Source of the DNA: Candidatus Magasanikbacteria bacterium RIFOXYC2_FULL_42_28
Lineage (GTDB): Bacteria; Patescibacteriota; Patescibacteriia; Magasanikbacterales; GWA2-37-8
Direction of reading: 5' to 3'
NCBI GenBank assembly: GCA_001784435.1
Contig: MFQZ01000001.1
Coordinates: forward strand, 156,205 to 220,204
DNA length: 64,000 nucleotides
Shown: in pieces, positions 1,528 through 51,940 of the stretch
Position numbering within the stretch: position 1 is the stretch's first letter
How the letters are laid out: each line of letters starts with the position of its first letter
Program-made: the position numbers and the translations under genes
Notes under the pieces: generated by a model
The model's input: the letters and a program-made list of their open reading frames with translations, nothing else
Told to the model about the DNA's origin: nothing
The model's database searches: none

Positions 1528-2517
1528 TCAATCAGCGGGCGTGTTCTTATCCAAATTTTTAATATAATCCGGTATGTCGTTATTCCCCTGCCCCGCGAGC
1601 CAAGTCCACCATTCCGCTCCCCACAAATACGCGCGACTGACGCCGATTGCGCTGGCGTAATCAATATTTTTTTGTAAGCGCTCTAAATTCATGGACTTAT
1701 TTTGTTCTTCCAAACCAACGCTCGTAAAATTACCGGTCGGTATCCAGGGCTCGGCTTGTAATTCTGACACCATAAATTTATCCGCATTAACTCCGGTCAA
1801 AACCGTTTTCAAACGATAAAAACCGGCTGGCAACCAATCATAACTCCAATAGCCGGTTAGTTTGCTCCACACTACTCGATAAAGCGTGGTGCCAAACCAA
1901 TCCCCGGCTTTAGCGGTACGATGCCAGGTGGACAGTTCGCCGGAATCAGTTACTAACGTCGGCTTGCCGGTGGCGCGCGCCCGCTCAACTTCGTTGGCTA
2001 ATTGTTCGGCGGTCATTTTGCGACATTTTTCGCCAAAAGCCAAAAATGGCTCATTTTCTACTTGCCACATTTCTATGACCGAATTATTTTGATAACGTTC
2101 CAACACGATTTTAAGATAATTGTCCAGCGCCAAAGAATATTCCTGATCCGATAACCCGATCGCCCAGGCCGGCGCGTGACATTCGGGCCAACGTGGCGTT
2201 TTTTGCCCCATTGCCAAGATAACTTTCAAGTTATTTTTTTTTGCTTCATTTAAATAATAATCCAATTCCCCAAAATTATACTCATCCGAACTCGGCTCTA
2301 CCAAATCCCAATGCGCCGGCATTCGTAGATATTTGAAATTCCAATCTTTAATAATTTTATTAAAAACAATTTTATCGTCCAAACCCAAAAAACGCGCGTA
2401 AGTCGGGTCGAAAGAAACGCCAATGGTCATATTTTTGTTTGGTGTGATTGGCCAAAAAAATAAAACCAAATAAATTGCTAAAATTACGCCGAGGATAATA
2501 AATAATTTTTTGAGCAT
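1528..2517 (-). CDS. membrane-anchored glycoside hydrolase, clan GH-A (GH5/GH113-like TIM barrel)
   Basis: N-terminal TM helix, conserved QVENEP catalytic acid/base motif typical of clan GH-A, WPECHAPAW segment. Confidence 0.55.
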   Translation of the reverse strand: MLKKLFIILGVILAIYLVLFFWPITPNKNMTIGVSFDPTYARFLGLDDKIVFNKIIKDWNFKYLRMPAHWDLVEPSSDEYNFGELDYYLNEAKKNNLKVILAMGQKTPRWPECHAPAWAIGLSDQEYSLALDNYLKIVLERYQNNSVIEMWQVENEPFLAFGEKCRKMTAEQLANEVERARATGKPTLVTDSGELSTWHRTAKAGDWFGTTLYRVVWSKLTGYWSYDWLPAGFYRLKTVLTGVNADKFMVSELQAEPWIPTGNFTSVGLEEQNKSMNLERLQKNIDYASAIGVSRAYLWGAEWWTWLAGQGNNDIPDYIKNLDKNTPAD

Positions 2518-2644: not shown

Positions 2645-3550
2645 TCACACTATCATCGCTAACCCCAAACCAATCAACACAATCGCCCCCACCTCTTGGA
2701 TAATCTCAGATTTACTATATTCTTCTTTAAACAATTTCGGCCAAAAACGCGATAACAAAAATACCAAAATAATTAAGAGCGCGTATTGCACCCCGGCCAA
2801 AGCGTTGATAACAGTAACACTGCCCAGCGCGATGGCGTATTGGACCAACACCACGCCCACAATCGCCAAAATTTTATTAATGACAATAATTGGTAAACTA
2901 CGGGCGGGTATTTTTGTTTTCTTGGTTGGTGGCGTGCGTTTAAATAAATTTCGCCTTAAAACCGGCGACACCAAGAGCATCGCCCCAAATACCCCCATTA
3001 TCCCCCGCGTCCAAATAAAACCGGTCCAGAAATCATAACTGTTATACAAATACTTGGCTGACACGTGCGACACGGCAAACAGCGCGGCCGCGACTAGCCC
3101 CCAAAGCATCGCCGAGTTTAATTCGTAATGATTTTTTTTGTATTCAAACGCCACGGCCAAAGTCCCGACCGATAACAAAAACACACCAAAAAGTTGCGAG
3201 TTGGTTAAATATTCCGCCAAAAATAAAGAACTGAAAATTAAAACAAATAACGGAATTGATCCGCCCACCAGTGGCCCGATATGGCTCACTTCGCTTTTCA
3301 AAAACCCCCGATACATCGCCCATAAAGCCAAAGTAAATGAAACGCCGGAAACCGTGGCCACAAAAAAATCTTTGCCAAAATCAAACGGTTGGCCATAAAA
3401 CGGCAGTAAAAAAAATACGACCAAAACCGGAAAAGCGGAATAAAAAACAAAGGCAATCGGCCGAACTTTTTCCGATGTTAAAATATACTTATCGGAAATG
3501 GCGACAATGGCCAAGAAAAAATAACCGAGTAAGGCGATGGGGAGAAACAT
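2645..3550 (-). CDS. DMT-superfamily (EamA-like) permease
   Basis: 10-TM hydrophobic profile with two EamA-like halves; start moved to MFLPIALLGYFF because the upstream MTLEIGNLTFF in the track is a translation of the family A repeat. Confidence 0.6.
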   Translation of the reverse strand: MFLPIALLGYFFLAIVAISDKYILTSEKVRPIAFVFYSAFPVLVVFFLLPFYGQPFDFGKDFFVATVSGVSFTLALWAMYRGFLKSEVSHIGPLVGGSIPLFVLIFSSLFLAEYLTNSQLFGVFLLSVGTLAVAFEYKKNHYELNSAMLWGLVAAALFAVSHVSAKYLYNSYDFWTGFIWTRGIMGVFGAMLLVSPVLRRNLFKRTPPTKKTKIPARSLPIIVINKILAIVGVVLVQYAIALGSVTVINALAGVQYALLIILVFLLSRFWPKLFKEEYSKSEIIQEVGAIVLIGLGLAMIV

Positions 3551-3554
3551 AAAA

Positions 3555-3672
3555 AATGTCAAATTTCCAATTTCCAATGTCAAACAAAATCCAAAATCCC
3601 AATATCAAATTTGAAATTTTGGCTTTGACATTTGATATTGATTTGAAATTGGAAATTTTGATTTTGAAATTA
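3555..3672. repeat. family A palindromic element abutting start of DMT gene
   Basis: atgtcaaatttccaatttccaatgtcaaa...tttgaaattggaaattttgattttgaaatt. Confidence 0.7.
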
Positions 3673-3710
3673 CCACTATTATTTTACCATATTTTTGACT
3701 TTTAAACAAA

Positions 3711-3739
3711 AAACCATCCCGACTAAGTCGGGATGGTTT
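3711..3739 (-). terminator. intrinsic terminator hairpin aaaccatcccgactaagtcgggatggttt
   Basis: Perfect stem-loop followed by a T-run on the minus strand; the same hairpin type recurs at 6045-6077 and 52765-52798. Confidence 0.6.
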
Positions 3740-3878
3740 CAAATTACTCCTCGGCTCTCTAAAATATTCAACTAATTAAATATTTTAGAGATCGGAGCCG
3801 AGGAGGGAAAGTGTGGCGGCTCGACGATCTCGCGGAAGGGCGAGAGGTGGCCGCTGGGTGGGAGTGGGGAAAGGGGGT

Positions 3879-4262
3879 CTAGTCGTGGTGCCAGCCACCC
3901 TCCTGGAGGAGGGAGTGCCCGCCCTTGGGGACAAAGGTCGGGGCGGGCTCGCCGAGCGACACGCGGGTCGTGGTGAAGCAAGCGCGGTCGCCGTCCTTGA
4001 CCTCTTCCACGCGCAGAACGTCGCCATCGCGGAGACCGAGCGGGACGAACCCGACGACCCCGCGAACCTTCTCGCCGCGCATCATCAGGCGGTACTGACC
4101 GCCATCTTGGGTCAGACGAACAATCATGGGGTGAGTGAAGCGCACGCTGTCACGATCCTTCCGATCGCAGCTCGTGGACTTCTGGTAAACGCACCCGTCG
4201 CGAAAGACGAACGTCTGCCCGGCCAAAAGATTCATACACACTCCAGATACTTGTTTGTCCAC
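3879..4262 (-). CDS. hypothetical small protein encoded in GC-rich island 1
   Basis: Only long ORF in the island that is preceded by a TATAAT -10 (plus 4400-4405) and followed by two tandem hairpins (3748-3806 large inverted repeat, 3711-3739). Composition is strongly GC-rich compared with the flanks. Confidence 0.4.
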   Translation of the reverse strand: MDKQVSGVCMNLLAGQTFVFRDGCVYQKSTSCDRKDRDSVRFTHPMIVRLTQDGGQYRLMMRGEKVRGVVGFVPLGLRDGDVLRVEEVKDGDRACFTTTRVSLGEPAPTFVPKGGHSLLQEGGWHHD

Positions 4263-4804
4263 GCTCCCCGCGCGGACTTCTTGTCAAACCTGACTCACAC
4301 CGGACACACTCCGGTATGGTGAGTCATCCTGCACATCTACAACGCCCAAAGCACTGTTATGCTCTCGGCGTTGTAGACGCACACTTGTAAAGAACTATCA
4401 TTATACCCTGCACCAGTCCGCACCATAGGCGGACGATGCAGGGCTAAACAAAACACCCCGCAACATTCGTCGCGGGGTGTGTGTAATTTTTATTTAACTT
4501 TACTTTGTAAAATTATTACACATTACCCCACGTCCAAACGGCAATACCAAAAAGGACAAGACCTTGATGGCCCAGCGTACGCGATTAATAATGTGTAAAT
4601 TATTTTTCATATATATTATATACTCTCATATCTGGAAAATATGTCAATAAAGTTATCCACAGGGCTTCGCCTTCGGCTACGCCCTGTAAACTTGGTTTAC
4701 CCGGCGTAGCGTAGCAAAGCCGGGCCATGTAAACTGGTGATAATATCTTTAAAATCAACTTCTTTGTCTAAATTATTTTGGCTAATTTTAGCCACTTTTA
4801 CCCC

Positions 4805-4833
4805 TTGACAAACTAACCAAAATGTGATACAAT
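4805..4833 (+). promoter_or_regulatory. sigma70-like promoter TTGACA-17-TACAAT upstream of glycosyltransferase
   Basis: ttgacaaactaaccaaaatgtgatacaat. Confidence 0.55.
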
Positions 4834-4882
4834 AACCTGTTTTGATAAATACCCAAGTCGTGGGTAAAAAAGGTCAAAATTT

Positions 4883-6046
4883 ATGAAAATCTTAATGATT
4901 GGACAAAAAGGCATACCAGCTCGCTACGGGGGCGTTGAACGCCACGTGGAAGAGTTGTCTTATGAATTGGCCAAACTCGGTCATGAAATTTTTGTATACG
5001 CGCGTTCTTGGTATACTCCCAAAAATATTAAAAATTATCGCGGTATCAATATTATCCATACCCCTTCTATCCACACCAAACATTTGGACGCGATTACTCA
5101 CACTTTAACTTCAACTCTTCACGCTTTGTTTCAAAAACCGGACGTGATTCATTATCATGGCGTGGGTCCGGCGTTATTGTCGTGGATCCCACGCTTGTTT
5201 TTGCCAAACACAAAAGTGGTGGCCACCTTTCATTGTATTGATCGTTACCACCAAAAGTGGAATTTCTTGGCGCGGTTTGCTTTGCGCGTGGGCGAATGGT
5301 TTACTTGCCATATTCCGCACGCGACTATTGCCGTGTCCGAGTCCTTGCGCAATTATTGTCTAAATGAACATCTTTGCCACACCCGTTATATCCCGAACGG
5401 CGCGCGCCCAATCGTGGACAAATCCAGTGAACTTTTAAATCAATTTGGTTTAAAACCGGAAAAATATCTTTTGATGGTGGCGCGTCTTGTCCGTCATAAA
5501 GGAGCGCAGTATTTAATTTCCGCTTGGAAAAATGCCCGCGCGTTAGAGTCAGAACTTTTGGCTGATTACAAATTGGCCATTGTCGGCGACAGTGTCTTCA
5601 CTGATGATTATGTCAAAGAATTACATACGCTGGCCAATAATTATAAAAGCATCATATTCGCCGGTTGGGTGGATGGAAAAAATTTAGAAGCGCTCTTCGC
5701 TAATACCGCTTTACTCGTGCACCCTTCGGAAAACGAAGGCTTGCCTCTCACCGTGCTGTCCGCGATGGCTGCCGGCCGACCGGTGTTGGTCTCGGATATT
5801 GCCGAACATCTGGAATTAATTAAAGATAAAAATTTCTTGTTCGCCAATACCAATATTGATGAATTAACCGAAAGAATAATCGCGCTCATCAAAGCGCCGG
5901 AGCTTCGACGCGAACAGGGCGCCAAAAATGCCGAACGCGCCCAAGCACATTACGACTGGGCCAAAATCGCCCGCCAAACGGAAAATATTTATTTGGCAAA
6001 AAGTCATGCCCTTGCACCCGCAAGAATCTCCACGGCAAGCAAATAA
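4883..6046 (+). CDS. glycosyltransferase family 4 (GT-B fold)
   Basis: C-terminal EX7E-type motif HPSENEGLPLTVLSAMAAGRPVLVSD; N-terminal GT4 core. Confidence 0.8.
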   Translation: MKILMIGQKGIPARYGGVERHVEELSYELAKLGHEIFVYARSWYTPKNIKNYRGINIIHTPSIHTKHLDAITHTLTSTLHALFQKPDVIHYHGVGPALLSWIPRLFLPNTKVVATFHCIDRYHQKWNFLARFALRVGEWFTCHIPHATIAVSESLRNYCLNEHLCHTRYIPNGARPIVDKSSELLNQFGLKPEKYLLMVARLVRHKGAQYLISAWKNARALESELLADYKLAIVGDSVFTDDYVKELHTLANNYKSIIFAGWVDGKNLEALFANTALLVHPSENEGLPLTVLSAMAAGRPVLVSDIAEHLELIKDKNFLFANTNIDELTERIIALIKAPELRREQGAKNAERAQAHYDWAKIARQTENIYLAKSHALAPARISTASK

Positions 6047-6077
6047 AAACCATCCCGACTTAGTCGGGATGGTTTTT
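6045..6077. terminator. bidirectional intrinsic terminator between convergent GT genes
   Basis: aaaaaccatcccgacttagtcgggatggttttt, with an A-run before and a T-run after. Confidence 0.7.
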
Positions 6078-13980: not shown

Positions 13981-14026
13981 ATTTTACATTGTCACTTTCC
14001 CGCCATAGGCGGGTCCGCCTATGGCG

Positions 14027-14080
14027 GAAATATTGGACATTTTTTTGGAAATTGGAAATTGGAAATTTGACATTATCAAA
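14027..14080. repeat. partial family A element between convergent helicase and pyk
   Basis: ggacatttttttggaaattggaaattggaaatttgacatt. Confidence 0.5.
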
Positions 14081-15509
14081 TCACTTCCCGCACCTCCACC
14101 AAATTCACATGCCCGGCTTCCCCTACCGGCTCACCGGCCACAACAATCATCTTGTCCCCTTTATTAGCAAACTTTTCTTTTTTAATGTAAACCATTGATT
14201 TTTTTATCAACTCTTCAATCGTTTTGCAGACCGGCAAAATAAACGGCTTAACGCCCCATGATAAATTTAATTGTCGCTGGACGCGCGCGTCATGCGTGGC
14301 CACGAGCACCGGAATTTCACTACGAAGGTGGCTAATCATCCGGCCAGTCTCGCCGGTTAAAGACGCGGCTAAAATTAATTTAGCGCCCACATTCTCTGCT
14401 AATAACCGCGACAATTGCACAATTGATTCGTCTACTTGCGAACCTTTTTTGCGTATCACCGCCCCGGGCAAGTCATCATAAGTGGACGCCTCCGTAACCA
14501 TCACGATTTCGGCCATAGTCCGCACGGACAGCGCCGGAAATTTGCCAACCGCGGTTTCATTAGATAACATCACCGCATCGGTGTGATCAATAACGGCATT
14601 AGCGATATCGGACACTTCAGCACGCGTCGGACGGATATGCTCTTGCATGGAATCTAACATTTGCGTCGCCACAATTACGGGCTTCGCGGCCGCGTTGCAT
14701 AAATCAATTAAACGTTTTTGCACCAAAGGCACTTGCGCGGCCGGCAATTCTACCCCCATATCGCCACGCGCCACCATAATACCATCAGCGACCGCGATAA
14801 TTTTTTCCATATTGGCCACGGCCGATTGATTTTCAATTTTAGCAATAATTTTTGTCGGACTACCCGAATTTATTTTATGAGTTTTTTCAATTTTGGTAAT
14901 TAAAGCGCGCGCCTGTTTAATATCGTCAGCCGAATGCACAAACGACAGCGCGACCGCGTCGACGCCCAATTTAATACAAAATTCCAAATCCGCTTTATCT
15001 TTGTCTGTTAAAGACAGCATATCCAATTTGCTATCCGGCAAATTAACGCCTTTGCGCGCGCTGACGAGTCCACCTTCGGCTACCGTCGCGAAAATCTTAT
15101 CTTTGGAAACGCGGGTGATTTTTAAAGCGATTTTACCATCATCAATTAATACCCGCTCTCCCGCGCGCAAACATTTTTGCAGACCAAAAAAATCTACCGG
15201 TATTACTCCGGCTTCATTGGTTTTGCTTTCCGGCGCTAAAACCACTTTTTGATTAATTTTTAAAACGACCGGGACGCGTAAATTTCCCAAACGAAATTTG
15301 GGGCCACGCATATCGGCCATTATCAAAACCGGCTCGTGATATTTTTTCCCGGCAACGCGAATGGCGCGATACAACCGGCGATGTTCATTATGCGAACCGT
15401 GCGAAAAATTAAGCCGAGCGCAATTTAAGCCGGCGCGAACCATTTGAGAAATAATTTTGCCACTGGCCGAGGCCGGGCCGATGGTGGCGACAATTTTAGT
15501 GCGTTTCAT
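14076..15509 (-). CDS. pyk: pyruvate kinase
   Basis: MKRTKIVATIGPAS..., MVARGDMGVE motif. Confidence 0.9.
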   Translation of the reverse strand: MKRTKIVATIGPASASGKIISQMVRAGLNCARLNFSHGSHNEHRRLYRAIRVAGKKYHEPVLIMADMRGPKFRLGNLRVPVVLKINQKVVLAPESKTNEAGVIPVDFFGLQKCLRAGERVLIDDGKIALKITRVSKDKIFATVAEGGLVSARKGVNLPDSKLDMLSLTDKDKADLEFCIKLGVDAVALSFVHSADDIKQARALITKIEKTHKINSGSPTKIIAKIENQSAVANMEKIIAVADGIMVARGDMGVELPAAQVPLVQKRLIDLCNAAAKPVIVATQMLDSMQEHIRPTRAEVSDIANAVIDHTDAVMLSNETAVGKFPALSVRTMAEIVMVTEASTYDDLPGAVIRKKGSQVDESIVQLSRLLAENVGAKLILAASLTGETGRMISHLRSEIPVLVATHDARVQRQLNLSWGVKPFILPVCKTIEELIKKSMVYIKKEKFANKGDKMIVVAGEPVGEAGHVNLVEVREVI

Positions 15510-15967
15510 TTTAGCAATGTTTTTAGTTGCTCTTTTTCCGCTTCGCCAATCGGCAATAACTGCATCAATTGTTCCAAAGAGTAGTTAGGCTTATCACCGC
15601 TCACATTGGCACCGGTGATATTTTCAAACACCTCTTTAAACTGACCAAGATACGGCGGTAAAAACCACAGCGCCAAAATAATCGGAACAACAATGAGCGC
15701 GAGCCGCAACCACCCGGCCACGGCCGACCAGCGCAATTTACGATTAATTTTACGATTCTGCTCGTAAATAATTTGCGACCATTTTAAATTTTTCTCTATC
15801 AACTCGCGCAAGTCCGCTTCGGAAGCGGGTGGTTTTTTGTCATTCTGAGGAAGCGTAGCGACCGAAGAATCCCTTACAGTTTGCGTTAAGGGATCCTTCG
15901 TTTCACTCAGGATGACAGGTGCGGATGTTGCCACCGTTTTTTCAACAGTATTTTTATGTTTAAACAT
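15506..15967 (-). CDS. hypothetical membrane protein; 5' part overlaps a family B element
   Basis: A C-terminal TM helix; residues VILSETKDPLTQTVRDSSVATLPQNDKKP are the in-frame translation of the B element at 15836-15917, so the true start is uncertain. Confidence 0.35.
   Translation of the reverse strand: MFKHKNTVEKTVATSAPVILSETKDPLTQTVRDSSVATLPQNDKKPPASEADLRELIEKNLKWSQIIYEQNRKINRKLRWSAVAGWLRLALIVVPIILALWFLPPYLGQFKEVFENITGANVSGDKPNYSLEQLMQLLPIGEAEKEQLKTLLK
15836..15917. repeat. family B element (close relative of copy at 61728-61800)
   Basis: tgtcattctgaggaagcgtagcgaccgaagaatcccttacagtttgcgttaagggatccttcgtttcactcaggatgaca. Confidence 0.55.
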
Positions 15968-16504: not shown

Positions 16505-16612
16505 TTAATGTCAAATTTCCAATGTCAAATGTCAAATCAAATCCAAAACCAAAATATCAAATAACGATTGTGGTGAATTGGAAATTGGAAATTTGGATTT
16601 TGACATTATCAC
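16505..16612. repeat. family A palindromic element immediately after ftsZ stop
   Basis: atgtcaaatttccaatgtcaaatgtcaaatcaaatccaaaacc...ggaaattggaaatttggattttgacatt. Confidence 0.7.
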
Positions 16613-16613
16613 T

Positions 16614-17834
16614 CTATATTCCCATTTTCTTCCGAATAAACGCCGGGATTTCCAAATCATCATCGGCCTTAGAGGCGGCCGTAACCACATCGTGGCGCTT
16701 GGCCAAATCGTGCGCCGGCGTATCCGTGTCAGTGATATTTTTTTGAGTGAACTGTTTGAATTTTTTTTCTTCTTCGGCCTCTTCTTTTTGAGTGCGACGC
16801 AAGAAATTGCTGGGCGCGTATTTAGCCGCGGAAAAAAACGAGGTCGCATTTTCTTCGGCTGTCAAAACCGGTGTTGGACGATGGCTATCAAAACCGGTGG
16901 CGATTACGTTAATGCGTAAATTATCTTCCATACTTTCGTCTACTGCCATACCCCAGATAACCTTGGCATCATCGGCCGCGCTACTCGTAATAATTTTGGC
17001 CGCCTCATCCACTTCGCTCATAGTAATACCGGAGCTACCGGTAATAGTGAATAAAATACCATGCGCGCCGTCAATGGACAATTCCAAAAGCGGACTGGAG
17101 ATCGCCGCTTGGGCCGCGGTTACGGCGCGATTTTCGCCTTTACCCATACCAATACCCATTAAAGCCGAACCGGTATTGCGCATAATCGTGCGCACGTCCG
17201 CGAAATCAACATTGACCATGCCTGGGACGGTAATTAATTCGGAAATACCTTGAACGCCCTGGCGCAAAATATCATCAATAGTTTGAAAGGCCGTCAGCAA
17301 AGAGGTTTTTTTGTCAATCACCTGCAAGACGCGATCGTTCGGGATGGTAATAATGGTATCCACATTGCGCGCCAATTCTTCCCAAGCATTTTCGGCAATA
17401 TCACGTCGTTGCGGACCTTCAAATGAAAACGGTTTGGTGACAACCGCGACCGTGAGCGCCCCCAAATCGCGCGCCACTTCCGCCACGACCGGAGACGCGC
17501 CTGAACCGGTGCCACCACCCAAACCACAAGTAATAAAAACCATGTCAGTATCTTTTAACAAATCGCGAATTTCATTTTGTGATTCTTCGGCCGCCTTACG
17601 CCCCACTTCCGGATCCATCCCCGCGCCGAGCCCGCGCGTAATCCCTTTGCCAATATGTAATTTATTGGGCGCGCTACTATGATGTAAGGCCTGAACATCG
17701 GTATTCATCACCACAAACTCCACGCCCCGAATTTTAGCGGAAAGCATGCGATTGACAGCCGCGCCACCCGAACCGCCGATACCAACTACTTTAATTTTGG
17801 CAAATGTTTCCATTTCCGGTTTTACTTGAGGCAT
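16614..17834 (-). CDS. ftsZ: cell division GTPase FtsZ
   Basis: Tubulin signature GGGTGSGASPVVA. Confidence 0.95.
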   Translation of the reverse strand: MPQVKPEMETFAKIKVVGIGGSGGAAVNRMLSAKIRGVEFVVMNTDVQALHHSSAPNKLHIGKGITRGLGAGMDPEVGRKAAEESQNEIRDLLKDTDMVFITCGLGGGTGSGASPVVAEVARDLGALTVAVVTKPFSFEGPQRRDIAENAWEELARNVDTIITIPNDRVLQVIDKKTSLLTAFQTIDDILRQGVQGISELITVPGMVNVDFADVRTIMRNTGSALMGIGMGKGENRAVTAAQAAISSPLLELSIDGAHGILFTITGSSGITMSEVDEAAKIITSSAADDAKVIWGMAVDESMEDNLRINVIATGFDSHRPTPVLTAEENATSFFSAAKYAPSNFLRRTQKEEAEEEKKFKQFTQKNITDTDTPAHDLAKRHDVVTAASKADDDLEIPAFIRKKMGI

Positions 17835-21920: not shown

Positions 21921-22376
21921 TTAATTTCCTTTTTTTAGAGGATTGTAATTGCGCTTAACTTCATACCCGTCTTTATAACCATCGCCATCAGTATCGGCAT
22001 TAAGCGGATCGGTTTTCCATACTTCTATTTCAGTTTTGTCCAAAATGCCATCGCCATCAGTATCGGATTTTTTCGGGTCAGTGCCAGATTGTTTTTCTTG
22101 ATCAGCCGTAAGACCGTCTAAATCTTCGTCCGTAATACGAATGTTATCTAATGCTTTATTCAACGCTACCAACTCTTCTTTTCTTTTTTGTTCCGAAGCG
22201 GTTTGACTTAAAGCGCCACCGGTTAATTTTTTACGCAGTGCCAATACTCCAAACACTAATCCGACCACCAACAACAAAACCACAATAACCGCGATAATTA
22301 TATTTAAAATTTTACCAAAAGAACGCGGTGGCGTATTATTGGTTGATGGTATTAAAGTGTCATTCATATACTTCAA
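21921..22376 (-). CDS. thrombospondin type-3-like repeat protein, TM-anchored
   Basis: DTDGDGILDKTEIEVWKTDPLNADTDGDGYKDGYEVKRNYNPL. Confidence 0.55.
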   Translation of the reverse strand: MKYMNDTLIPSTNNTPPRSFGKILNIIIAVIVVLLLVVGLVFGVLALRKKLTGGALSQTASEQKRKEELVALNKALDNIRITDEDLDGLTADQEKQSGTDPKKSDTDGDGILDKTEIEVWKTDPLNADTDGDGYKDGYEVKRNYNPLKKGN

Positions 22377-25300
22377 TAACTAAATCGTAAATAATTGCGC
22401 GAGCTACGAATATAATTAAGATTTTCTTCTAAACTTACCTCGGCTGAAGCTACCGGGTTAGGATACAAACTCTTAATATTAAACACATGCCAAGCACTGG
22501 CGTTAGGATTATCGTCAATGGCCGGATCATAATCTAAATCAAGAGCGGACAATTGGCGCGCGTCTTTTAACTCAAAAGTCCTGACCGGGAAAGAAAATCT
22601 GGAATCGGACGCATAGTCAATATTGGTGTCAAAATCCGGTTCATATACTTCCACTTTAACACCACCGTTATTGCGATAATAATTAATGGCCGAATCGTCG
22701 TCAGTGCGGACATAGAAAATAAAGGGATTCGCGCCCATAGCGTTCGTGTTGATTGTAAAGGACTCCATATTCAAACCGGATGCGGTGGTAGTGATGCCGT
22801 GGTACCAGATGCCCTGCTTCAAAAAGTTACTACCTGTCTCAGTAAAATAGCTCCTGCCAATAGCTGAGTTAAAATCTGTCCCCTCTTTGGCAACTACTGT
22901 ATTACCACCATTAATCGCCGTCACAAACCCGGCTGATAACTGCTTTGACGCATCGCCAACCCAACTCAAAACTACACGGATATGCCCTTTCTGTTGGGTA
23001 GAAGAAGCATTGATTCGGGGCGACAACAGTAAATCAAAATCAGCGGGTGTAGAATCGGCGCGAACCGGGAAAAATTTACGGCGAATAGGGGCGTTCGGGG
23101 TGTTAGTCACGAACGCGCGATAACCATTGACAGTTAAATAATAGGCGGCTAAATTATCATCTTTAATCGAACATCTGAGGTCAGAATTTACCTTAACCGA
23201 GCCAATACCATTGCCACCTTCTCTAAGCGCGTAACTGCTGGCGGTGGGCGAATCAATGCCAACCCGCAACATCTGCGCTAGGGAAATCGTTGATGACTGG
23301 GAATAATTTACTGTTGGTTTAGAATAAAATAATTCTAAAAGACCAGAGTGACTCGTGCCGGCATATAAATAATCATAAATTGGGTCAATGGAACTGGGCT
23401 CGATAACATTAATAATATTGCCACTAACCGCAACACCGTTGGTGTTGTCTTTGCCACAGGCCACGCAATTATCTTGGATCTCCGAGCAACTGCTGTTACA
23501 TTTTCTATCGCCTATTTGGCGAGGGGTATATTGTTCTAAATTAGTTTGGTATATCAAATTAGCCCAGTATGAAGTGCTGACATTAAGTGGTGCCACCAAT
23601 TGATCGCAACGGTAGACGTGATAACCGTTTACATCGTCAGTGATAGTACCGTAAATATTAGTGCCGGTTACAGAAGAATAAGTATTAATTCCGACATTTT
23701 CACATCGTTCCGGACTACTAGTATTTATCACGCCATCCCCGCACCAGCCGCTCGCCTCTTTACGAATCACATTGCGACAATCGGCCGAACAATAGGTGCA
23801 AGGGCGGTTATAGCCAGGCCTACAGGTTTGGCCGTTATTATTATAAATCAAGGCGCCGGTAACCGCGTTTACTTGGCTGTTGTCGCAGGCCTCGGTTTCC
23901 GATTCAACATGGCCGTTGCCACAGCCGGTGGGGGCAACCGGACCGCTATTGGGAGTGGTGCTGGCCGTGCACATCCAACCGCCCAAATCACGATAACTGT
24001 CAAACAAATCTTTTACTTCGGGCGTTGATAAAGCGCGATCAAAATATTTTAATTCGTCCATTTTGCCATAGTAAAAATACCAATCCTGTTTGGGTATCAT
24101 CCAATCTCCCTCAATTGCGCCGGAAGAGGTAAGACAACCGCTACCACTAGCGGTGGAACCGGAATAGGGATGGGTATGATCGCTATGTGTATAACCTCCG
24201 ACAATATTTACATAATTAATCGCGCTACCATACCAATTATCAGCGCCAAAACTGTAATTGCCACAATCTGTTAAATTGTTTAAAGGTTTTGAAGTGGTAA
24301 TTTTTAATACACCATTAACATAAACACGAGCGGAAGCGGAATTATTTACTACAACCAAATGCGTCCAAGTGTTAGGTGGCGCCGCTCCACTAATAGTGAG
24401 CGGATCAGGACTACCCGCAAATCTCGCACCGCCACCCGGTTGTCTTTCGTAATTATCTGCAACGCTACAACGAGCTGAATAGGTGGATGATATCGCCCCC
24501 ATGGCGTAAAATAATAGATCATTATTGCTAATATCGCGACGCAAAGTAAAACCACAATTATTGGTATCCATCCCGCCTTTTTCAATAATAGTATTAAATC
24601 GATGCACATTAACGGAATCCCATGGATGATCGTCCGGATTTATCCATAAAGAAATTGAGCTGGTGCCGGTAATTTCAAATCCGGAATAATTTGGCAAGGT
24701 TGAACTGGTGTATAAAAACAATCTTTTATTATAAGAGTTTTTGAATGCCCCACCAATTTTACCATCGCTTACCACCTGGGGGTATTGCGGAAAATCACCG
24801 GTCGCTGTTGAAGAAACGTTGATAACTGAAAATATTTTGTGTAAATTAAATTTATCACCACTGAAAGGATAAACATATCTTATGGCGCCACCCGAAGCCG
24901 GACGAGATCCTGGCGACAAACCCGCCAAATTATCCATCCCCCATTCGGCCAAAGCGCTAACTTTACGACAGCTCAAACAATTTCTCACGCCACTACTCCC
25001 ACCCACACTGCAAACCGGCTCGCCATCGCACTCTTCTCCTTGGCTGGCATCAATAACACCATCACCACAATACGAACCGAAACCGGAACAATCAGATTTA
25101 CAAGAATAACTATTGCTCATGGCATAAACCGAACAGGCGTATGGACTAGGGGTAGAGACACCCGCACCAGTGGCATAAGCGCATTTGCTAGAAACGGTAT
25201 CACAAAACTCATACGGTTCGTCCAGCGCGCCATTGCCACAGTACAGAGTGCTCGTGGCCTCACAAGTGTTGTTACATTTACCGTATCGTCCGTTTAGCAC

Positions 25301-28300
25301 GCCATCATCGCAACTTTCACCCAAATCCAATTTACCATTACCGCATTTTGTTCTGTCCAAACAATCAACTCCACCTTCGGTTTCTTCCCATTTACAATTA
25401 GCCGAACAAGTTTTTAGTGTTCGTGTGCCACCGGTACAAACATTACCATATTCCAACGCCTGTGGCGGGTCGCAATCCTCGCCTAAATTCAAATTTAATT
25501 TCCCGTCTCCGCAAAATCCGGACTGCATGGTGGAAATTTCTTCAGACGCCAGACAAATTCCGGTCGGATCAGATACAAAACGCGAGGTGGTAACAATGAA
25601 TTTAGGAATAAGTGCGTTAAAAGCATAAGACAAACTGTATTCTTTTGGCTCCAACAAATACCTTACCATATAATTGGGCGAGCTGGTAGACACAATATAC
25701 CGGTAAGCCAATGAAGTCGGATCGCAAGCAAAACTAAACCGACGGTCAGCAGTAGAGGTGCCGGTGGTCAGCCAATTGGTGGTGGCATCGTGCAGCAGAC
25801 ATTTGTTGTCGGTAATAGTTGAGTCGCAATCAGTATCAACATGGCAAAATTTGGCGATATTATCGGCCGTATAAGCGCAACTGCCGGCCGGGGCCAAACG
25901 ATTAATCGGGTCGGTCGGCAAACTGCGTCCGGTGGCAGTTCCTAAAACACTCCACGACGGCCAGGTGCTCACAGTTTGGCCGGATAAATATGTGCCTTGG
26001 GGCAATGGCGGATATTTACCGGCATTGGCATCAGCGTAATTGGCCAATGATTTTTCAATCGCGCCCAAACCGCGCAAACGATTATAATTGCGTTTTAGTT
26101 TATCAATTTGGTTGGCGCATTTTTGTTCCGAATGACCGGCGGACGCGCAATCTATATCGGTTCGGCAGGGCACGGAGTCGGGCGATAATACCGGTGGGTC
26201 AACCTCTAAACTATCAACACAATAATTAGTATTGGTTAAGTTGGTATTGAGCGTCAAATTATTCATAAACTGCTCAAACACGTTTTTCATGGTCGCGCCG
26301 GAATTTTTGTTTAAACTGAATAAATAGATATTTGATTTAAGATTCGCGCTTCCGCCCGCAGAATAATTCAGCGCTTCCACATAAACATTGTTGCCATCAG
26401 ACACGGCGTCATAACCGCCAACTTTTAGATCGCGGAAATTATTGACGTTAAAATCCTTACCGCCGCTTTGTTTGTTACCGGCGAGCCAGTCGCGCGGGCT
26501 TAAGAAATATTGATTGGAGAATACCGAAATACCAACGGCGTCTGATACACCGCGAGAGTTGGTGTCGGTAAAAATAAAGCGTTTGAGAAGTTGGGGTTGA
26601 GCGATACAGACTGGATCTTCAAAATTTAACGATGGGTAAATTAAATTGGAACATATCGTACTATCGTAATCACTCGGGATTGTATCCTTCCAAACTTTAA
26701 AACCGTCGTCGTCATCACAACTATCCTGATTGGTGCACGATAAAGGAGAATTATTTTTATCTAAATAATATAAGGCGGCAGAATCATACGCCGGCGCTTT
26801 GGCAACCCGACATATTTTAGTGGAATATTTTGAGTAGAAAACACTGCGAGTGGTAGTAACAGTAAATTTAGCGTTACACTGCTCATCTGCCGCTACACCC
26901 AAATCACATTCCTCGCCCGTAAAACTACACGCCCCTTTTGCCACTTCCAACTGCGCCGTGCTCGTCTGCACTGCCGCGCGCAAATACGGCAAATCATCAC
27001 CTCTGCCGGAGACACCGGAATCAGCGCAATAGTAAGTGCGGAAATTATAATAACCGCTGGTGTTAGTTTCTTCTACAGTCGACGGGTCAATAGACGAACC
27101 ATCAAACGCGTCGGTCGCCAAATTAAAGCCATCGTCATTATTTAATTTATCTTCATACGGGAAAATCCGCGCGCCATTTGAAGGCAAATCTTTGGGTGGC
27201 CAAGGATTTTCGCACAAAAATACAATCGCGTGCGCTTGGCCGGTCGCCACCGGACCCCTGCGGGCGGTATATTGATTAGCAACGACATTGGCCGTGGCAT
27301 AAACATCAATTTCGCCATTTTTATTCAAGGCCTTTAAAATATTGTCGCCGTTAGCAACAGACGCCGAAGTGGTTGCCGGGGCAAACTCAACAAACGGATT
27401 GGACACGCTCGGAGCCGGCCCCCAGATATAATCCCAAGCGTAAAAATTAGCAATGGGCGCAATAATTTGATTGCCGCGCGAAGCGTCGGTGCGAGCGGTA
27501 ACGTGCATCGTGGTAGTGGCGTTGGCGCGCGCAAAATACACTTCCGTGGGTGACAAAGAGATGTTTTCCACCTCACATATTTCATTTCCGGTTTCAAAAC
27601 TCCACCTGATAACCGCGCCAATACTGACTCCACGCGTGTCTTTAAGGCCATTTTTTAAAATTATGGTATAATCGGCGTCAGCGGAAAGAGGCCGATTTAA
27701 ATTCACTTTCAAAGTAGAAGTGGAAAATAGTTTGGTGTCAGGATCAAATTCATTATTTACTTCAACCGCGCCGGTATCACCACCCACGCACCAAACATCA
27801 GCCGAAGCGGTTTGACGACCAAACAAATTATTGAACCAAGCCAAAGCGCGTTTTAATAATCGTTTGGGCCAAGATAGTTGTTGATTTTCAAACGCTACCA
27901 CTAGTTCGGTTACATCTTCACCGCCGGTGTAACAGGTGCTGGTAGCCAAAAGTTGACGCGCGATTAAGAAATTACCGGTAATGCTATTTTTGTCAATTGG
28001 GTGGTCAAAGCTGGCGGAAATGGAAGTGTTTAAACAGACATCGTCGGCATCATCAAGCGGATAGTTAGCGGTTTTTTGTGGTCGGGCGTAGCAACAAGAA
28101 TTATTGCCCACGCCATAAGTGTTATCATTCGGCAAACCAGCGACACTCACGCACTCATCATCATTTTGATAACCGCATTTGATTTCAAATCTACCACTAT
28201 CGGTTTTGGCTGTGCCACTGCCACCAGCGGTATTTTGGTTAGTAGTAGCGCTAATAAGAGCCACTTGCGCCACGCCAGCACCCACCGCGTTAGTGCCGGT

Positions 28301-31300
28301 CGCGCCCATACCCACGCCTTTGGCTAAAACCCACGGATCAAAACGATATAAACCGGTGGTAGTAGCCGCGCGACTGTATTTTATAAAATCAGTACTGGTG
28401 GTACTTTCACAATAATCCACTTCGCCCGTGCCGGTTATACCGTCGCCACACACTGATGGATTGGAATATGACAAAGACGAGCCCAAAGGACGGTAATCGC
28501 TGATATTACAACCTTCTTCCCCGAAAACACACGCGCCTGCATATAATGGTTTAGTAGCAAAATCCCAGCCATCGGTAGAATAAAGCGAAACTTTGTAATC
28601 TACCATTTGACAATATTTATTACACGGCTTGGGATAAACATCTTCATCAAGAAAAGACGCCTCGCACTCCGGATCTTCATCCGCGCTCGTCACCCCATCG
28701 CCACATTGGCTATAAGACACATTTTTATAAAAATCATAAGTGGTGGTGGCGAATCCGGCCGGACGCTCGTTGCCCGGTTGTTGGAACCAGTAATTGGTCA
28801 TGCGCGTACCGGTGTGGAGACATTGAGCCGAGCAGTTGCGACTACTTGTGGTCATCAAAATATCATCAGGTGGTATCGCTACATCGCACTCCTCGCCCAC
28901 CGTCACTTTACGGTCTCCACAAACCGACGCGTTAACATTGTTGGCTTTGGGCTCGGCCGTGGAACCGGTCCACAAACAGTTGAACGCGTTACAATTTACT
29001 CTTTTGGTAATATCAGCACTCCCCGGGTCGCATTCTTCGCCTTTGGTTGATGAAACAAAACTATCACCACACAAACCAATATCAACAGTGCTGGTTGTAT
29101 TCGTGGTATTAGTATTCCCACTATACAAACAAGTCAAAGTACACCCGCCCGTCGCGCTCGGTAGATCGCAATCTTCACCCGCTTCTACTGTGCCATTACC
29201 ACAAGCAATAAACCGGTCTACCGCCCCACTTGTTGTCGTGGCAAACGGCACATCACTTCCCTTGCGCACACAGCGATCGGTACAATTTTTGTTTTGGCCC
29301 AAAGTGCGAAATGGCGTAACTGTCGCCACATCAGTATCCGATGATTGCCAATTCCAACCGACATCATAGGCGTTCAAACGCTGGCCTTGGGCGCTACAAG
29401 CGTCCGGCGCTGAATAGGGCGTGGCAAAATAAAACGATTTGTCGGTTATGCGGCGCGTGCTAAATACTTCAGGCGCGACATCTACCCGATCAATTAAACA
29501 GGCCTGGTCTTTGGTGCGGAATTTCCAAGTTAAATTTTTGTTAAACGGTTTGCTGTAAGAGCTCGGACTAAAAATATTACCCAGCGACCATAAAACATCC
29601 GGCGCTGTGGCAGGAGAAGATAATTCACCCGGGTATTCATTGGAAATGGAAACGACATAATACTTGGACTGTTCTAAATCTGTTTCCGGCGTTAAAATTA
29701 TCAATGACTTATCCGGCTGATTTTTAACATCCGCCAATGTTACCGGTTCGGTAGTAAAACAATTAACATCATTGCATTTATCCAAACGCACCGCCCCGTT
29801 CTCCTTATCCAAATTGGCCGTGCTCATACTGATATTAAATTTCACGCCAATTTCCGCGCTCGGACAGGCCTCAAAACACTGCGGCCAATAATCAACCACT
29901 TTCGGATCGGATAGATCAATCGTGAGTGTGCTCGTGCCGGTTTTGGTTTTGGTAACACTGGCGGTATTAGTGGTAGCATCGGCAAAAATATTCACGGCAT
30001 TAAGCGGGTTGGTCAAATTCACGCCCACGGTATTTTGCAAAGCGGACACTTGTGCCTTATCCATCGTGGTCGTACCGACGATATTGGAATACGCGATATT
30101 ACCTGACCGCCAATTCCAGCCGTAGCCGGAAACATCCATCATAATACAACGGTCTGTGCTCAAACCATTACCGCGATAAAATAAATCGTATTCACGACCA
30201 GAAGCTGTGCGGCCGATTAACAATTCTTCCAAATGGTTGGTCCAATATTCGTACGGCGTTACGATCACTTTTTCTAATTCGCACTGTCTACCGGTTGGGT
30301 CAGTGTGGAACGCAAAACAATAAGCCGTGCCGTCGCCACAAGGTCGGTCGGCAATTATTGGAGTGGAACTTGCCCCCGTGCCATTGGCGCGAATATTGTT
30401 ATATAATTTTACTTGATACCAGGTATTAGGTATCCAATGGCCGGTGTTGTGGTTGTAGGTACTTGTTGGTCTTAAAGATAGGTAGGCGTGCTGGGAATTA
30501 GCACCACTCTGACTTGATACACCGGGCAAAAGCACGCCTCGGCTATCACCGGTATTAACAACCGATACCTTGGTCGGCGCCACTCCGGTTGTTAAACAAT
30601 TTTGTTGAACAGCATCAATACCGCCCGTACATTCCAAAACAACAAGCGCGTTCAGGTCGGTTCCGGGCACGTTAGTATTTATTAAATTAATATCAGCGCG
30701 CGAAAATTCAATGGAGATTAAAGCCCCACGACAAACATTTTCTTGCGGATCACCGCCACCTTGGCGCCATAGCAAACTGGGCGAGGGCGATGGCAATGCC
30801 AAACCGGCCATAACACTCGCGTCACACCGCTCCACTACGCGCAATGGCTCGGGAATACCGGCGGTGGAAAATCGCCACATATAACCGGTGGAAAGAGTGT
30901 CATTTTTGCATCGAAGATTGCCGGCAATACAAACCCCGGGCTGACCGGTATCGCGACCACAACATTGTTCGGTATCTTTATTACAAGCATTGGTATTTTC
31001 TAAACAATTTTGGACGGTAAAATCAACCTGATTACTTACTTTATTATCAGACGCGCGCCTCACTTCTATCGCCCCGGAAACAGTGCCTTCAACTGGCGAC
31101 ACCTTTATTTCATTATCGGTAATAGCTAATTTTTCCGCCACCTTGTTTCTGGAAAAAAATATTGTAGTTGAAATACCGACTGTGTCATCATCAGACAAAA
31201 AATGATCACCGAAAATTTTCAAACCGTCTTCGTCCGGATAAGGAATGGGACCGGAATAATTACTTAAAGCGCAAATACCGGGCGCCGGTTCACCGCCAAC

Positions 31301-39057: not shown

Positions 39058-40657
<1,600 letters not shown>

Positions 40658-41164
40658 AAAAAAAGTTCAATTAAGAACTATCAGAGAAGAGTGAAAAAAA
40701 TTCACTCTGCTAGATTTGAATCTCTTTTGACTGCTAAAGCCAAAAAGAGTTCTGGATTTATTCTGTATGTACGTCTTTCATTGTTTGTACTCAACAAACA
40801 ACTAAGACAATGTTTAGAGAAATAGATTTTGTGATTTTTGTCACGATTTGTATTGTCAACGAACACTGCTTCGCTACGCTACGCAGTGCAAGCATCTACT
40901 TGGACACGTTGCGCAGTGTAAACTTTCTTTCTTTTTACAGAAAGAAAAAAGAGGAACCAAAAATTTCAGTTACTCTTTTTTCTTTCCAGTATCCTATCTA
41001 CCTAACATTCCAAACAACAGCTTTTGGACTTAGAAGAAATCAATTGTTATAAAGTACTTGGTTGCCTTGATTTGTATTAAGCAAACGCAGTTTAACATAT
41101 TGTCAGAAACCTGTCAAGGGGTGGTTTGGGGTAAGGTGGGGATAAAAAAACCTTGATGTGTAGA

Positions 41165-41234: not shown

Positions 41235-41528
41235 ATGGTCGCAGTCAGTATTACGATCATTGTCAACGACAAATGGAAATGGGAAGTTCGCAAACTGTTT
41301 GCGAAGAAAGGCGCAAACGGAGCAGGTGGGCACACGAGTGTCACCCGCAACGACAAACGAGAATTTGAAGTTCGTGTCGTAGGGGCGTACGATCAATCGC
41401 TGGGCACTTGCCCGGTGACCGAAACAACGGCCCCAACCCTCGCTCTGGCCCTGCGCCAGGTTCCACCTGATTTCCGGCGGGAAATAAAATCCCATCTGGC
41501 GCGCGTTCGTTGCGCCATGAAGAAGTGA
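41235..41528 (+). CDS. hypothetical 97-aa protein in GC-rich island 2
   Basis: ATG with a good RBS, own promoter, terminator hairpin at 41641-41672; the 3' two-thirds of the ORF and the downstream 100 bp are strongly GC-rich. Confidence 0.4.
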   Translation: MVAVSITIIVNDKWKWEVRKLFAKKGANGAGGHTSVTRNDKREFEVRVVGAYDQSLGTCPVTETTAPTLALALRQVPPDFRREIKSHLARVRCAMKK

Positions 41529-41677: not shown

Positions 41678-42373
41678 TCATTTTTTTCGCCACTCCGCTA
41701 TTTTTTTATGGTCGCCAGACAGCAGCACTTTTGGTACTTTTAATCCTAAAAAATTATCCGGGCGAGTATAAAGAATTTCAGATTTTTGAAATTTTGATTT
41801 TGGATTTGATTTGACATTGGAAATTGGAAATTTGTCATTAAACGTCTCATTACTTAACGACTCCTGATTCCCCAACACCCCCGGTATTAATCGGGAAGTC
41901 GCCTCCACCACTGCCAACGCTGGCAATTCCCCACCTGATAAAACATAATCCCCGACTGAAACTTTTTCATCTACAAATTTATACACACGCTCGTCAAATC
42001 CTTGGTAGCGCCCGGAAATTAAAATTAGACGGTCTAGTTTAGAAAATTTCTTGGCCATGGTTTGGTCGAATTTTTTTCCTGCAGGATCTAGTGCGATAAT
42101 TTTCAATTTACAATTTTCAATTTTCAATTTCTTGCCACCACGCGCTAACCCCAAACTCTCCAAACAATAATAAATTGGATCCACTTTCAAAACCATTCCT
42201 GCTCCCCCGCCATATTGCGTGTCATCCACCGGCTGGTGTTTTCCAACCGCAAACTCGCGCCAATTATGAGCGATGATTTTTATTAAATTTTTCTTTTGGG
42301 CGATGCCTAAGATACTATCATTGGAGTAGTGATAGATTAGGTCGGGGAAAATTGTAAGGATATCAAATTGCAT
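41678..42373 (-). CDS. trmD: tRNA (guanine37-N1)-methyltransferase
   Basis: ...LISGRYQGFDERV..., SVGDYVLSGGELPALAVVEA. Start moved to MQFDILTIFP; MEIGYLDFEI in the track is repeat A. Confidence 0.9.
   Translation of the reverse strand: MQFDILTIFPDLIYHYSNDSILGIAQKKNLIKIIAHNWREFAVGKHQPVDDTQYGGGAGMVLKVDPIYYCLESLGLARGGKKLKIENCKLKIIALDPAGKKFDQTMAKKFSKLDRLILISGRYQGFDERVYKFVDEKVSVGDYVLSGGELPALAVVEATSRLIPGVLGNQESLSNETFNDKFPISNVKSNPKSKFQKSEILYTRPDNFLGLKVPKVLLSGDHKKIAEWRKK
41778..41840. repeat. family A element (partial) downstream of trmD
   Basis: tttgaaattttgattttggatttgatttgacattggaaattggaaatttgtcatt. Confidence 0.55.
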
Positions 42374-42394
42374 AATCGCACGAACAAAATTTTT

Positions 42395-42512: not shown

Positions 42513-42588
42513 CCAAATATTAATACAAAACCACTCCGCAATAATATATCACGGAGTGGTTTAAATGTCTAATCAGAATATCTGATTA

Positions 42589-51935: not shown

Positions 51936-51940
51936 ACATT

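Follow-up and report, generated by a model that had tools for sequence, protein, structure and literature searches.

We have analyzed a stretch of 64,000 nucleotides (the window) from Candidatus Magasanikbacteria bacterium RIFOXYC2_FULL_42_28, positions 156,205 to 220,204 of contig MFQZ01000001.1. All coordinates given without a contig name refer to this window. The subject of this work is island 1, a real GC-rich stretch of about 0.7 kb in the chromosome of this metagenome-assembled genome of the candidate phyla radiation (CPR, or Patescibacteria). It contains one small open reading frame (ORF) on the minus strand, and lies between the genes for an EamA/DMT (drug/metabolite) transporter (EamA) and a GT4 glycosyltransferase (GT4). 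The surrounding genes are ordinary for such a genome. They are those for a glycosyl hydrolase, the EamA/DMT transporter, two GT4 glycosyltransferases (the second is called GT4b), a methyltransferase, serine hydroxymethyltransferase, a Pif1-like helicase, pyruvate kinase, NrdR, FtsZ/FtsA, 16S rRNA, TrmD, S16, SMC and ClpP. The window also contains two other GC-rich islands, islands 2 and 3.

The mean G+C fraction of the window is 0.443, with a standard deviation of 0.047 for windows of 450 nt. Positions 3788-4237 reach 0.651 (z 4.4), the second highest value among the 450-nt stretches of the 64 kb. Only island 3 is richer (0.716, z 5.7), and the 16S gene is only at z 2.6. The island as a whole (3806-4452) has a G+C fraction of 0.607 and its ORF of 0.644, against 0.320 in one flank (3400-3746) and 0.353 in the other (4481-4882). 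An earlier sequence-only reading of this DNA had described an abrupt switch in composition between the two genes, and the windowed values (0.61-0.65 in the island, 0.32-0.35 in the flanks) agree with it. The "two-thirds G+C" of that reading is right for the ORF and the 3' untranslated region (3'UTR), but not for the leader, where it is about 0.52.

The island is also found in an independent assembly. A Logan contig of 971 bp from run SRR2090171 is identical to positions 3711-4681 and spans both compositional junctions, with AT-rich host sequence and host-type terminators on either side of the island. This contig is reported from two samples, and a variant of the island 1 protein is present in a third read set, SRR3989339. 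Since both junctions are identical in the independent assembly, a chimeric assembly is very unlikely. The Logan contig ends at 4681, inside a hairpin repeat similar to the repetitive extragenic palindromic (REP) type. These GC-rich repeats occupy positions 4655-4730, between the island and GT4, and contain GTTTAC..GGGC..GCCC pairs.

The ORF proposed from the sequence alone is present, with 127 amino acids (aa) from a GTG codon. An ATG at 4235 is a likelier start and gives 118 aa, the length obtained in an independent gene call on the Logan contig. The base composition of this ORF depends on codon position, with a chi-square of 56.9 and a mean of 6.0 in shuffled sequences; none of 2000 shuffles reaches 56.9 (p<0.0005). 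No codon periodicity is found in the leader or in the 3'UTR. The G+C fractions at the three codon positions (GC1, GC2 and GC3) are 0.68, 0.43 and 0.78, and GC3 is 0.81 when counted from the ATG. At third positions adenine is almost absent (A3 0.02), cytosine makes up half of the bases (C3 0.50) and thymine (T3) is also depleted. Judging from the sequence, this pattern is the textbook signature of genes from a genome with about 65% GC.

The RNA of the ORF is not unusually structured (z -1.2). An ORF of 169 aa on the opposite strand is a shadow, because its codon-position pattern mirrors that of the coding strand. The evidence says that the 118-codon ORF has been shaped by translation. An unstructured ORF with structured ends makes the transcript look like a messenger RNA with protective end structures, not like a large structured RNA. 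The comparison of island 1 with Rfam gives nothing at the gathering threshold, and only chance hairpins at E values up to 5, such as Phe_leader (27 bits, against a threshold of 55) and mir-3473. The NCBI annotation of the source genome includes the ORFs of islands 2 and 3, not that of island 1.

The elements of the putative transcription unit are listed in Table 1. All the structural elements described in the sequence-only reading are found, displaced by a few bases at most. The promoter attributed to the island is only partly there: the -10 hexamer is perfect, but no acceptable -35 box accompanies it (4405-4400) and a consensus promoter scan makes no call. The background frequency of TATAAT in the window is 0.5 per kb and strand. 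The minus strand around and upstream of the hexamer (4396-4485) folds strongly (z -8.1). The structured leader does appear, with a folding energy of -78.5 kcal/mol against -49.6 in shuffles (z -7.3). Its 11-bp stem (tctacaacgcc/ggcgttgtaga) lengthens to 17+7 bp, and the second hairpin of the earlier description is followed by a third. The GGAG sequence lies 5 nt upstream of the ATG.

Table 1. Elements of the putative island 1 transcription unit and the genes next to it, in window coordinates.
Element	Position	Strand	Description
GT4 gene	4883-6046	+	Neighbour on the promoter side
Upstream terminator, putatively insulating	4453-4480	-	12-bp GC-rich stem, 4-nt loop, then TTTGTTT; terminator scan, inverted repeat I15
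Hairpin CCCTGCA..CGTCCGC / GCGGAC..TGCAGGG	4406-4443	-	Directly upstream of TATAAT; occupies the would-be -35 position
Putative promoter, perfect -10 hexamer TATAAT	4400-4405	-	From sequence; no matching -35
5' leader, about 158 nt	4236-4393	-	Hairpins 4383-4330, 4326-4291 and 4277-4257; GGAG (4244-4241) unpaired in the predicted fold
ORF, 118 codons and stop	3879-4235	-	ATG at 4235; alternative GTG at 4262 (127 aa)
3'UTR	3806-3878	-	C-rich and G-poor (C 0.53, G 0.15); internal hairpin 3854-3816; from composition and fold
59-nt hairpin	3747-3805	-	11 GC-rich and 14 AT-rich bp, bulge on one arm; repeats I5 and I14, fold
Intrinsic terminator	3700-3740	-	14-bp stem, 3-nt loop, then TTTTTTGTTT; terminator scan (site 3740-3710)
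EamA/DMT gene	2645-3583	-	Neighbour on the terminator side

The 3' region of the island is even more strongly folded (z -9.7). The composition of its 3'UTR may be likened to that of a Rho-utilisation site; the 3'UTR of island 2 is likewise C-rich (C 0.61, G 0.19). The inverted repeat described as perfect, with 25-bp arms, is present as the 59-nt hairpin, but a bulge makes it imperfect. This hairpin is not followed by a run of T, and marks the 3' compositional boundary of the island. Terminator-like sites are found in the minus strand on both sides, as had been proposed. The one upstream (4480-4453) argues against read-through as a source of island 1 transcripts. The 31-nt hairpin of the downstream terminator (3709-3739) has an exact second copy after GT4 (6047-6077, found by blastn-short), and this copy is at the same time the coding sequence for the C-terminal end of the convergent GT4b.

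The 118-aa product would have a mass of 13.2 kDa and an isoelectric point of 8.6, and contains no hydrophobic segment long enough to span a membrane. AlphaFold2 predicts an all-beta protein with a disordered tail (residues 96-117), in a low-confidence model (mean predicted local distance difference test score, pLDDT, 55.5). We infer a small soluble beta-rich protein, probably made from a monocistronic, stabilised messenger RNA. Its function can only be guessed: a nucleic-acid- or protein-binding accessory role, for example in conflict or host interaction. No motif could be named in the sequence-only reading, and homology and profile searches return only the protein itself or nothing. When 5.8 billion clusters are searched by word index, and 1.84 billion representatives exhaustively with phmmer, it matches only itself, so that some 15 billion public proteins include no relative. 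Pfam, PHROGs, PADLOC and NCBIfam give nothing at E values up to 1, and neither do the sequences in PDB. No relative is found in IMG/VR, nor by tblastn in phage and plasmid collections and in 128 related loci. The patterns of the leader stem and the 3' hairpin are not found in viral contigs. By these sequence comparisons, the island 1 protein is an orphan.

The variant from SRR3989339, P0010, is a cluster mate of this protein. It keeps residues 1-97 with one change, T42P, and its C-terminus is a +1-frame reading of what is 3'UTR in the window; as a whole it corresponds to positions 3772-4235 of the minus strand. The three substitutions that are visible (T42P and, in the tail, S to R and H to P) would each be an A to C change on the coding strand. 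P0010 is an entry of a protein-level assembly with no DNA on record, which may contain errors or be an artefact. Taken as it stands, it indicates that the island 1 gene is present in a second population and that its tail is not conserved.

Taking GT4 as an anchor, we have gathered 45 related loci in species-representative genomes and another 80 in metagenomes, designated here by L numbers. The order glycosyl hydrolase-EamA-gap-GT4-GT4b is kept in about 20 of the collected loci. The gap is occupied by folD in at least 11 of them (L008, L009, L011, L012, L013, L028, L059, L060, L064, L067 and L068), while the window contains no folD and its EamA-GT4 gap no remnant of it. A short gap of 307-651 nt is found in L057, L058, L071 and L072. 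Other GC-rich islets are present in the gap of L006 (109-aa ORF), L014 (two islets) and L058/L132 (62-aa ORF, GC3 0.87), and L007 has three GC-rich cassettes in a row, one of them with a 123-aa ORF (GC3 0.90). These mini-ORFs are on the same strand as island 1, each with its own leader and terminator, and have no sequence similarity to island 1 or to each other. An A3 of 0.02 is common to the ORF of island 1, the 62-aa ORF of L058 and the 123-aa ORF of L007, all in the same slot. The mini-ORFs of L006 and L014, as well as island 2, have an intermediate GC3 (0.57-0.68) and a weaker periodicity. L134 was rejected as a separate relative: it is the same genome re-assembled, with 100% identity.

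Since the slot may be filled by folD, by a short gap or by unrelated mini-genes, it is a recurrent site of gene turnover. The content of the EamA-GT4 junction thus varies between related genomes, and no orthologue of island 1 is found in them, with host-like GC or any other. Nor do they provide an empty-site allele: the best GT4 relatives in the genome and metagenome collections are 58-77% identical, too distant to define the ends of an insertion. ORFs as GC3-rich as that of island 1 are rare, with 12 hits in 1.09 Mb of low-GC CPR sequence. They represent about 9 distinct genes: targets of diversity-generating retroelements (DGRs), surface lipoproteins, a pyrF-like gene and mini-genes of the slot. 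Genes with a GC3 of 0.83-0.91 in low-GC contigs of the Magasanikbacteria type are found at L007 1-740, L027 3122-5767, L109/L116 and L129; they include the pyrF-like gene (L007, GC3 0.91) and Cys-rich repeat surface lipoproteins (L027, L109 and L129).

A conserved promoter cassette is located upstream of GT4 (4777-4834), with a TTTGGCTAAnTTAGCC hairpin, TTGACA and TGTGATAyAAT. It is also found in L003 (5651-5708), L004 (2405-2462), L011, L012, L025, L028 and L034. In L003 and L004 the same cassette is upstream of the DGR target gene.

The three islands of the window are mutually unrelated in DNA and protein sequence. They had been credited with the same layout: one small ORF each is indeed what they share, but they are otherwise only loosely alike and island 2 is much weaker (z 2.2). 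Island 2 contains a 97-aa ORF (41235-41528, plus strand) with a good host-type promoter (TTGACA-18-TAATAT) and a terminator. The periodicity of this ORF is weak (p 0.08), and its protein, an exact match of OGH88744, has no homolog in the 5.8 billion clusters.

Island 3 codes for a 182-aa product (48607-49155, minus strand), an exact match of OGH88749, which has six homologs. The seven members of this family are found at L002 6001-6567, L003 6001-6573, L005 692-1249, L051 262-873, L052 139-705, L053 183-788 and in the window. The final stretch of the gene, some 125 nt, is repeated 370-490 nt downstream in L005, L051 and L052, as a variable repeat (VR) and its template repeat (TR). Mismatches between both copies are located at adenines of the downstream copy in 14/15, 15/23 and 15/17 cases, respectively. 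In L002 and L005 the homolog is next to bAvd and RVT_1 genes. A repeat pair with adenine mismatches and adjoining bAvd and RVT_1 genes is the signature of a DGR target, and the AlphaFold2 model of island 3 resembles C-type-lectin-like folds, including Mtd and TvpA. On this sequence and model evidence island 3 is a DGR variable-protein gene, and not an anonymous imported gene. The window is collinear with L051 (84% nucleotide identity) from 49274 to 48239, and homology stops exactly where the TR of L051 begins. No template repeat for island 3 is found in the window; the target there would be either orphaned or served from elsewhere in the genome.

All seven genes of the island 3 family are GC-rich (0.59-0.66, GC3 0.78-0.91, A3 0.00-0.09) in contigs with a G+C fraction of 0.39-0.50. 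The N-terminal two-thirds are as rich as the variable repeat, so adenine avoidance in the template accounts only for the last 125 nt. The Avd, reverse transcriptase (RT) and HEPN genes next to them have a host-like G+C fraction (0.32-0.44). Family members are 45-67% identical and all of them are in CPR-like contexts. A high GC kept across such a divergence is not explained by a recent import from a high-GC donor, and a family which is stably GC-rich implies that high GC is not a safe sign of recent import in these genomes, to the detriment of the main inference of the sequence-only reading. We have not found this gene-wide richness of targets described in the DGR survey of Roux et al. 2021 (PMC8144416). 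L055 contains a distant homolog of the island 3 family with host-like GC (hhalign probability 79%, E 1.7e-5), an ORF of 146 aa (1798-2238, plus strand) that directly precedes GT4.

Island 3 is part of a 2,987-bp block, just upstream of smc, which also contains an NYN-domain gene and a Bro-N gene. The block is bracketed by two copies of a 47-nt direct repeat (94% identical; 47179-47225 and 50166-50212) which carries a promoter on the minus strand, TTGATT-17-TGTGATATAAT. From its sequence, the block looks like an insertion that duplicated the promoter.

The sequence-only reading offered two origins for the islands, a class of selfish mini-elements or a high-GC donor, possibly the host of the episymbiont. 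Our search for mobility functions relies on a Pfam domain scan of 40 of the 72 window ORFs with at least 110 aa. Besides some 25 shadow ORFs opposite annotated genes, the rest consists of the 3903-aa ORF at 22373-34084, of trmD (41678-42424) and of five ORFs on the minus strand between 59217 and 63756. The 40 scanned ORFs show no domain of a reverse transcriptase, Avd, integrase or transposase. Island 1 has no other copy in the window, its end hairpins are unrelated to each other and there are no inverted repeats between its ends. No common cassette ends exist either, as the islands of the window and those of the relatives share no DNA or protein similarity. We have therefore rejected a mini-element of the IS200/IS605 type or similar to a miniature inverted-repeat transposable element, which lacks here related end hairpins, terminal inverted repeats, target duplication and extra copies. 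The proposal of selfish mini-elements is likewise unsupported: terminal inverted repeats, target duplication, copies in the window and mobility genes among the scanned ORFs are all missing. No high-GC donor can be named, as islands 1 and 2 have no homolog in the 5.8 billion clusters; had such a gene come from the host or from an ordinary high-GC bacterium, a total lack of homologs would be strange. The repeated acquisition of small high-GC genes survives in part: there are three islands, island 1 has the codon usage of a genome with about 65% GC and its slot is variable, but island 3 does not fit.

Island 1 may be compared with several known systems. Phage "morons", reportedly described by Hendrix, Juhala and colleagues in 2000, are one of them. 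As in their case, an additional gene that carries a promoter-like element and a terminator of its own (here the terminator at 3740-3700) stands between genes which are adjacent or differently separated in relatives, and its composition (0.61-0.65) differs from that of its surroundings (0.32-0.35). Unlike morons, island 1 is found among CPR chromosomal housekeeping genes and not in a phage or prophage, and its promoter is only putative. No phage relatives appear in PHROGs, in the phage tblastn or in IMG/VR. Hot spots for horizontal gene transfer, located in chromosomes between core genes, are said to have been characterized by Oliveira et al. in 2017. The EamA-GT4 interval is similar in that its content differs in each lineage and consists mostly of genes with no known function; it departs from them in its cargo, which is a markedly GC-rich single gene of less than one kilobase with no mobility gene. 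Published islands of Patescibacteria have an average size of about 10 kb (PMC12455944).

Integron cassettes also contain a small ORF followed by an imperfect, bulged hairpin like that of 59 nt in island 1, and the three consecutive mini-genes of L007 recall their arrays. On the other hand, island 1 comes with a leader and terminators of its own, and the hairpins of different islands are unrelated. The ends of its hairpin show no R''/R' core sites, the window contains no attI and the scanned ORFs include no IntI. An integron cassette was rejected: the hairpin at 3747-3805 ends in CTCCTCGG and CCGAGGAG, with neither the attC inverse core (RYYYAAC) nor the core (GTTRRRY). DGR variable-protein genes of CPR bacteria have reportedly been studied by Paul et al. 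in 2017. Island 1 matches island 3 in GC3 and A3, and has a GC-rich tract and a hairpin downstream of its ORF. In contrast to such targets, it lacks a VR/TR pair in the window, an RT or Avd among the scanned ORFs and a family, and its low-confidence model is not C-type-lectin-like. We have rejected island 1 as a DGR target on the basis of the window, which contains no direct repeat or A-tolerant copy of it, and of the lack of similarity to the DGR-target profile.

The reading we favour, to which we give an even chance, is that island 1 is a strain-specific accessory gene, a self-contained unit of the moron kind, which entered a hot spot through horizontal gain or exchange. Either horizontal transfer or an exchange inside the CPR gene pool would have brought it there, and its insertion site would be a permissive interval between the conserved genes EamA and GT4. 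It may be transcribed alone on the minus strand, from about 4393 to about 3705, into a messenger RNA stabilised by its terminal hairpins, and the flanking terminators would insulate it from the neighbouring genes. The product would be a small, soluble and basic beta-rich protein whose C-terminal tail is floppy. Other genes with a high GC3 in the relatives also look clearly foreign, such as the pyrF-like gene of L007 and the Cys-rich surface proteins of L027, L109 and L129. Patescibacteria have been described as recipients of horizontally transferred genes, most of them with no assigned function (PMC12455944). Strain-specific orphan genes in variable intervals are of a known kind, common in bacterial genomes. 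Several observations weigh against this reading. The promoter consists of a -10 hexamer only. No end repeats or target duplication are found at island 1, nor a recombinase among the scanned ORFs. Neither a donor nor a homolog has turned up anywhere, and this would not be expected if the gene came from a high-GC lineage that has been sampled. The different C-terminus of P0010 suggests that part of the ORF may be unconstrained, and the island 3 family shows that a gene resident in CPR can be stably GC-rich, so that composition alone is no proof of import.

The island could also be captured foreign DNA which has lost its function in this host or never had one. CPR bacteria take up DNA, and a fragment with a small gene of a high-GC organism or of its phage would have been fixed in a permissive slot between genes and would now be decaying. 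We find this unlikely. It would agree with the orphan status, with the lone -10 box, with the omission of this ORF from an NCBI annotation that includes those of islands 2 and 3, and with the altered C-terminus of P0010, which reads through the 3'UTR in another frame. The mini-ORFs of island 2, L006 and L014, with their GC3 of 0.57-0.68, could be steps in a series of amelioration or decay. Nevertheless, the ORF is intact, with well-placed GGAG and ATG, and its first 97 residues are unchanged but one in a second sample. What the island carries is a single complete gene including its two UTRs, with no pieces of genes adjacent to it in a donor, and terminators flank it on both sides. A mis-joined fragment of a high-GC organism would explain the abrupt switches in a metagenome-assembled genome, but hardly deserves credence. 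Against it we find the SRR2090171 assembly, identical over both junctions and bordered at either end by host terminators and AT-rich host sequence, the occurrence of this contig in two samples and of a protein variant in SRR3989339, and analogous islands in the same slot of four other genomes, which come from other studies. That island 1 is a structured non-coding RNA gene, whose ORF is incidental to a GC-rich sequence, is very improbable. GC-rich intergenic islands in AT-rich genomes are often RNAs, its leader and 3' region fold far more stably than shuffled sequences do, and the 169-aa shadow ORF shows how easily open frames arise here. But Rfam offers no match even at E values up to 5, chance hairpins aside, the central 357 nt are unremarkable in structure (z -1.2) and strongly periodic, with GC1 above GC2 and GC2 far below GC3, and a Shine-Dalgarno sequence and an ATG are in place.

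A different origin would be an endogenous class of GC-rich, fast-evolving CPR mini-genes, whose composition is maintained in place and which become orphans by rapid divergence; we find it rather improbable. The process responsible could be an RT-linked loss of adenine, or GC-biased conversion at recombination hot spots. In its favour, the DGR-target family is GC3-rich and A3-poor over its whole length in 7 CPR contigs while Avd, RT and HEPN are not, the A3 of 0.02 recurs in the slot (island 1, L058 and L007), a distant homolog of the family with host GC is found right upstream of GT4 in L055, and all three substitutions of P0010 would be A to C on the coding strand. However, T3 is also depleted, which indicates general GC-richness and not a loss of adenine alone, and any donor with about 65% GC would give the same codon usage. 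The window contains no template repeat and no A-tolerant copy of the tail, no RT or Avd is found among the scanned ORFs and there is no similarity to the DGR-target profile. P0010 itself, a protein-level assembly with no DNA, may contain errors. A broader claim, that CPR genomes keep small A3-free GC-rich genes at set slots by endogenous upkeep and not by import, including the island 3 family and island 1 (an orphan, then, through very fast turnover), is a long shot in our opinion; if true, GC-rich islets would mark loci of programmed or accelerated variation in the genomes of episymbionts. It is also most improbable that island 1 is a DGR target whose template repeat is outside the window. 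Island 3 is such a target with no local TR, in the same window, and in island 1 a GC-rich tract and then a hairpin follow the ORF, as in the Bordetella phage DGR, where the initiation of mutagenic homing (IMH) sequence is followed by a hairpin. But island 1 has no similarity to the VR of island 3, so that its TR cannot be shared, the window has no A-tolerant copy and no repeat pair of the DGR type is found at any slot island of the relatives. DGR targets belong to families, whereas the island 1 protein is an orphan, and its predicted fold, from a low-confidence model, is all-beta and not C-type-lectin-like.

Other features of the window are also worth mentioning. A family of AT-rich palindromic intergenic repeats of about 130 nt (GGAAATTGGAAATTTGACATT and its complement) has copies at 2524-2656, 3550-3682, 14020-14091, 16507-16624, 41785-41856, 42390-42528, 43957-44012 and 51819-51951. 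Some copies adjoin islands 1 and 2 and extend over the TTG starts wrongly called for EamA and TrmD, and the family is also found in the relatives L011, L012, L019 and L031. A GC-rich REP-like family with repeats of 82 nt is present at 15836-15917 and 61718-61799. The 16S rRNA gene (39059-40663, minus strand) has 1605 nt, against 1533 nt in the model, and contains an AT-rich stretch (39433-39476) which resembles an intergenic repeat family, so an insertion is possible. A tRNA-like gene of 85 nt (60813-60897, minus strand) is reported by ARAGORN as tRNA-???, with a two-base anticodon call, and gives 47 bits with the Rfam tRNA model. The 3903-aa ORF (minus strand) probably codes for a giant surface protein; it is located next to TSP3-repeat genes and a gene for a T4SS-pilin/Big_5 protein.

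In summary, three points about island 1 are worth recording, although not surprising in themselves: it is a tidy cassette of less than one kilobase, such cassettes recur at one slot in several lineages of CPR, and its composition parallels that of a DGR target family. The EamA-GT4 slot is refilled by different GC-rich single-gene cassettes in at least 5 Magasanikbacteria lineages, which makes it a clean natural system for the study of gene gain in ultra-small, streamlined CPR genomes. The comparison with island 3 indicates that transfers into these genomes cannot be reliably dated by composition. If gene-wide GC-richness has a mechanistic cause, GC islets would be a cheap marker of hypervariable loci, probably involved in host interaction, in uncultured episymbionts.

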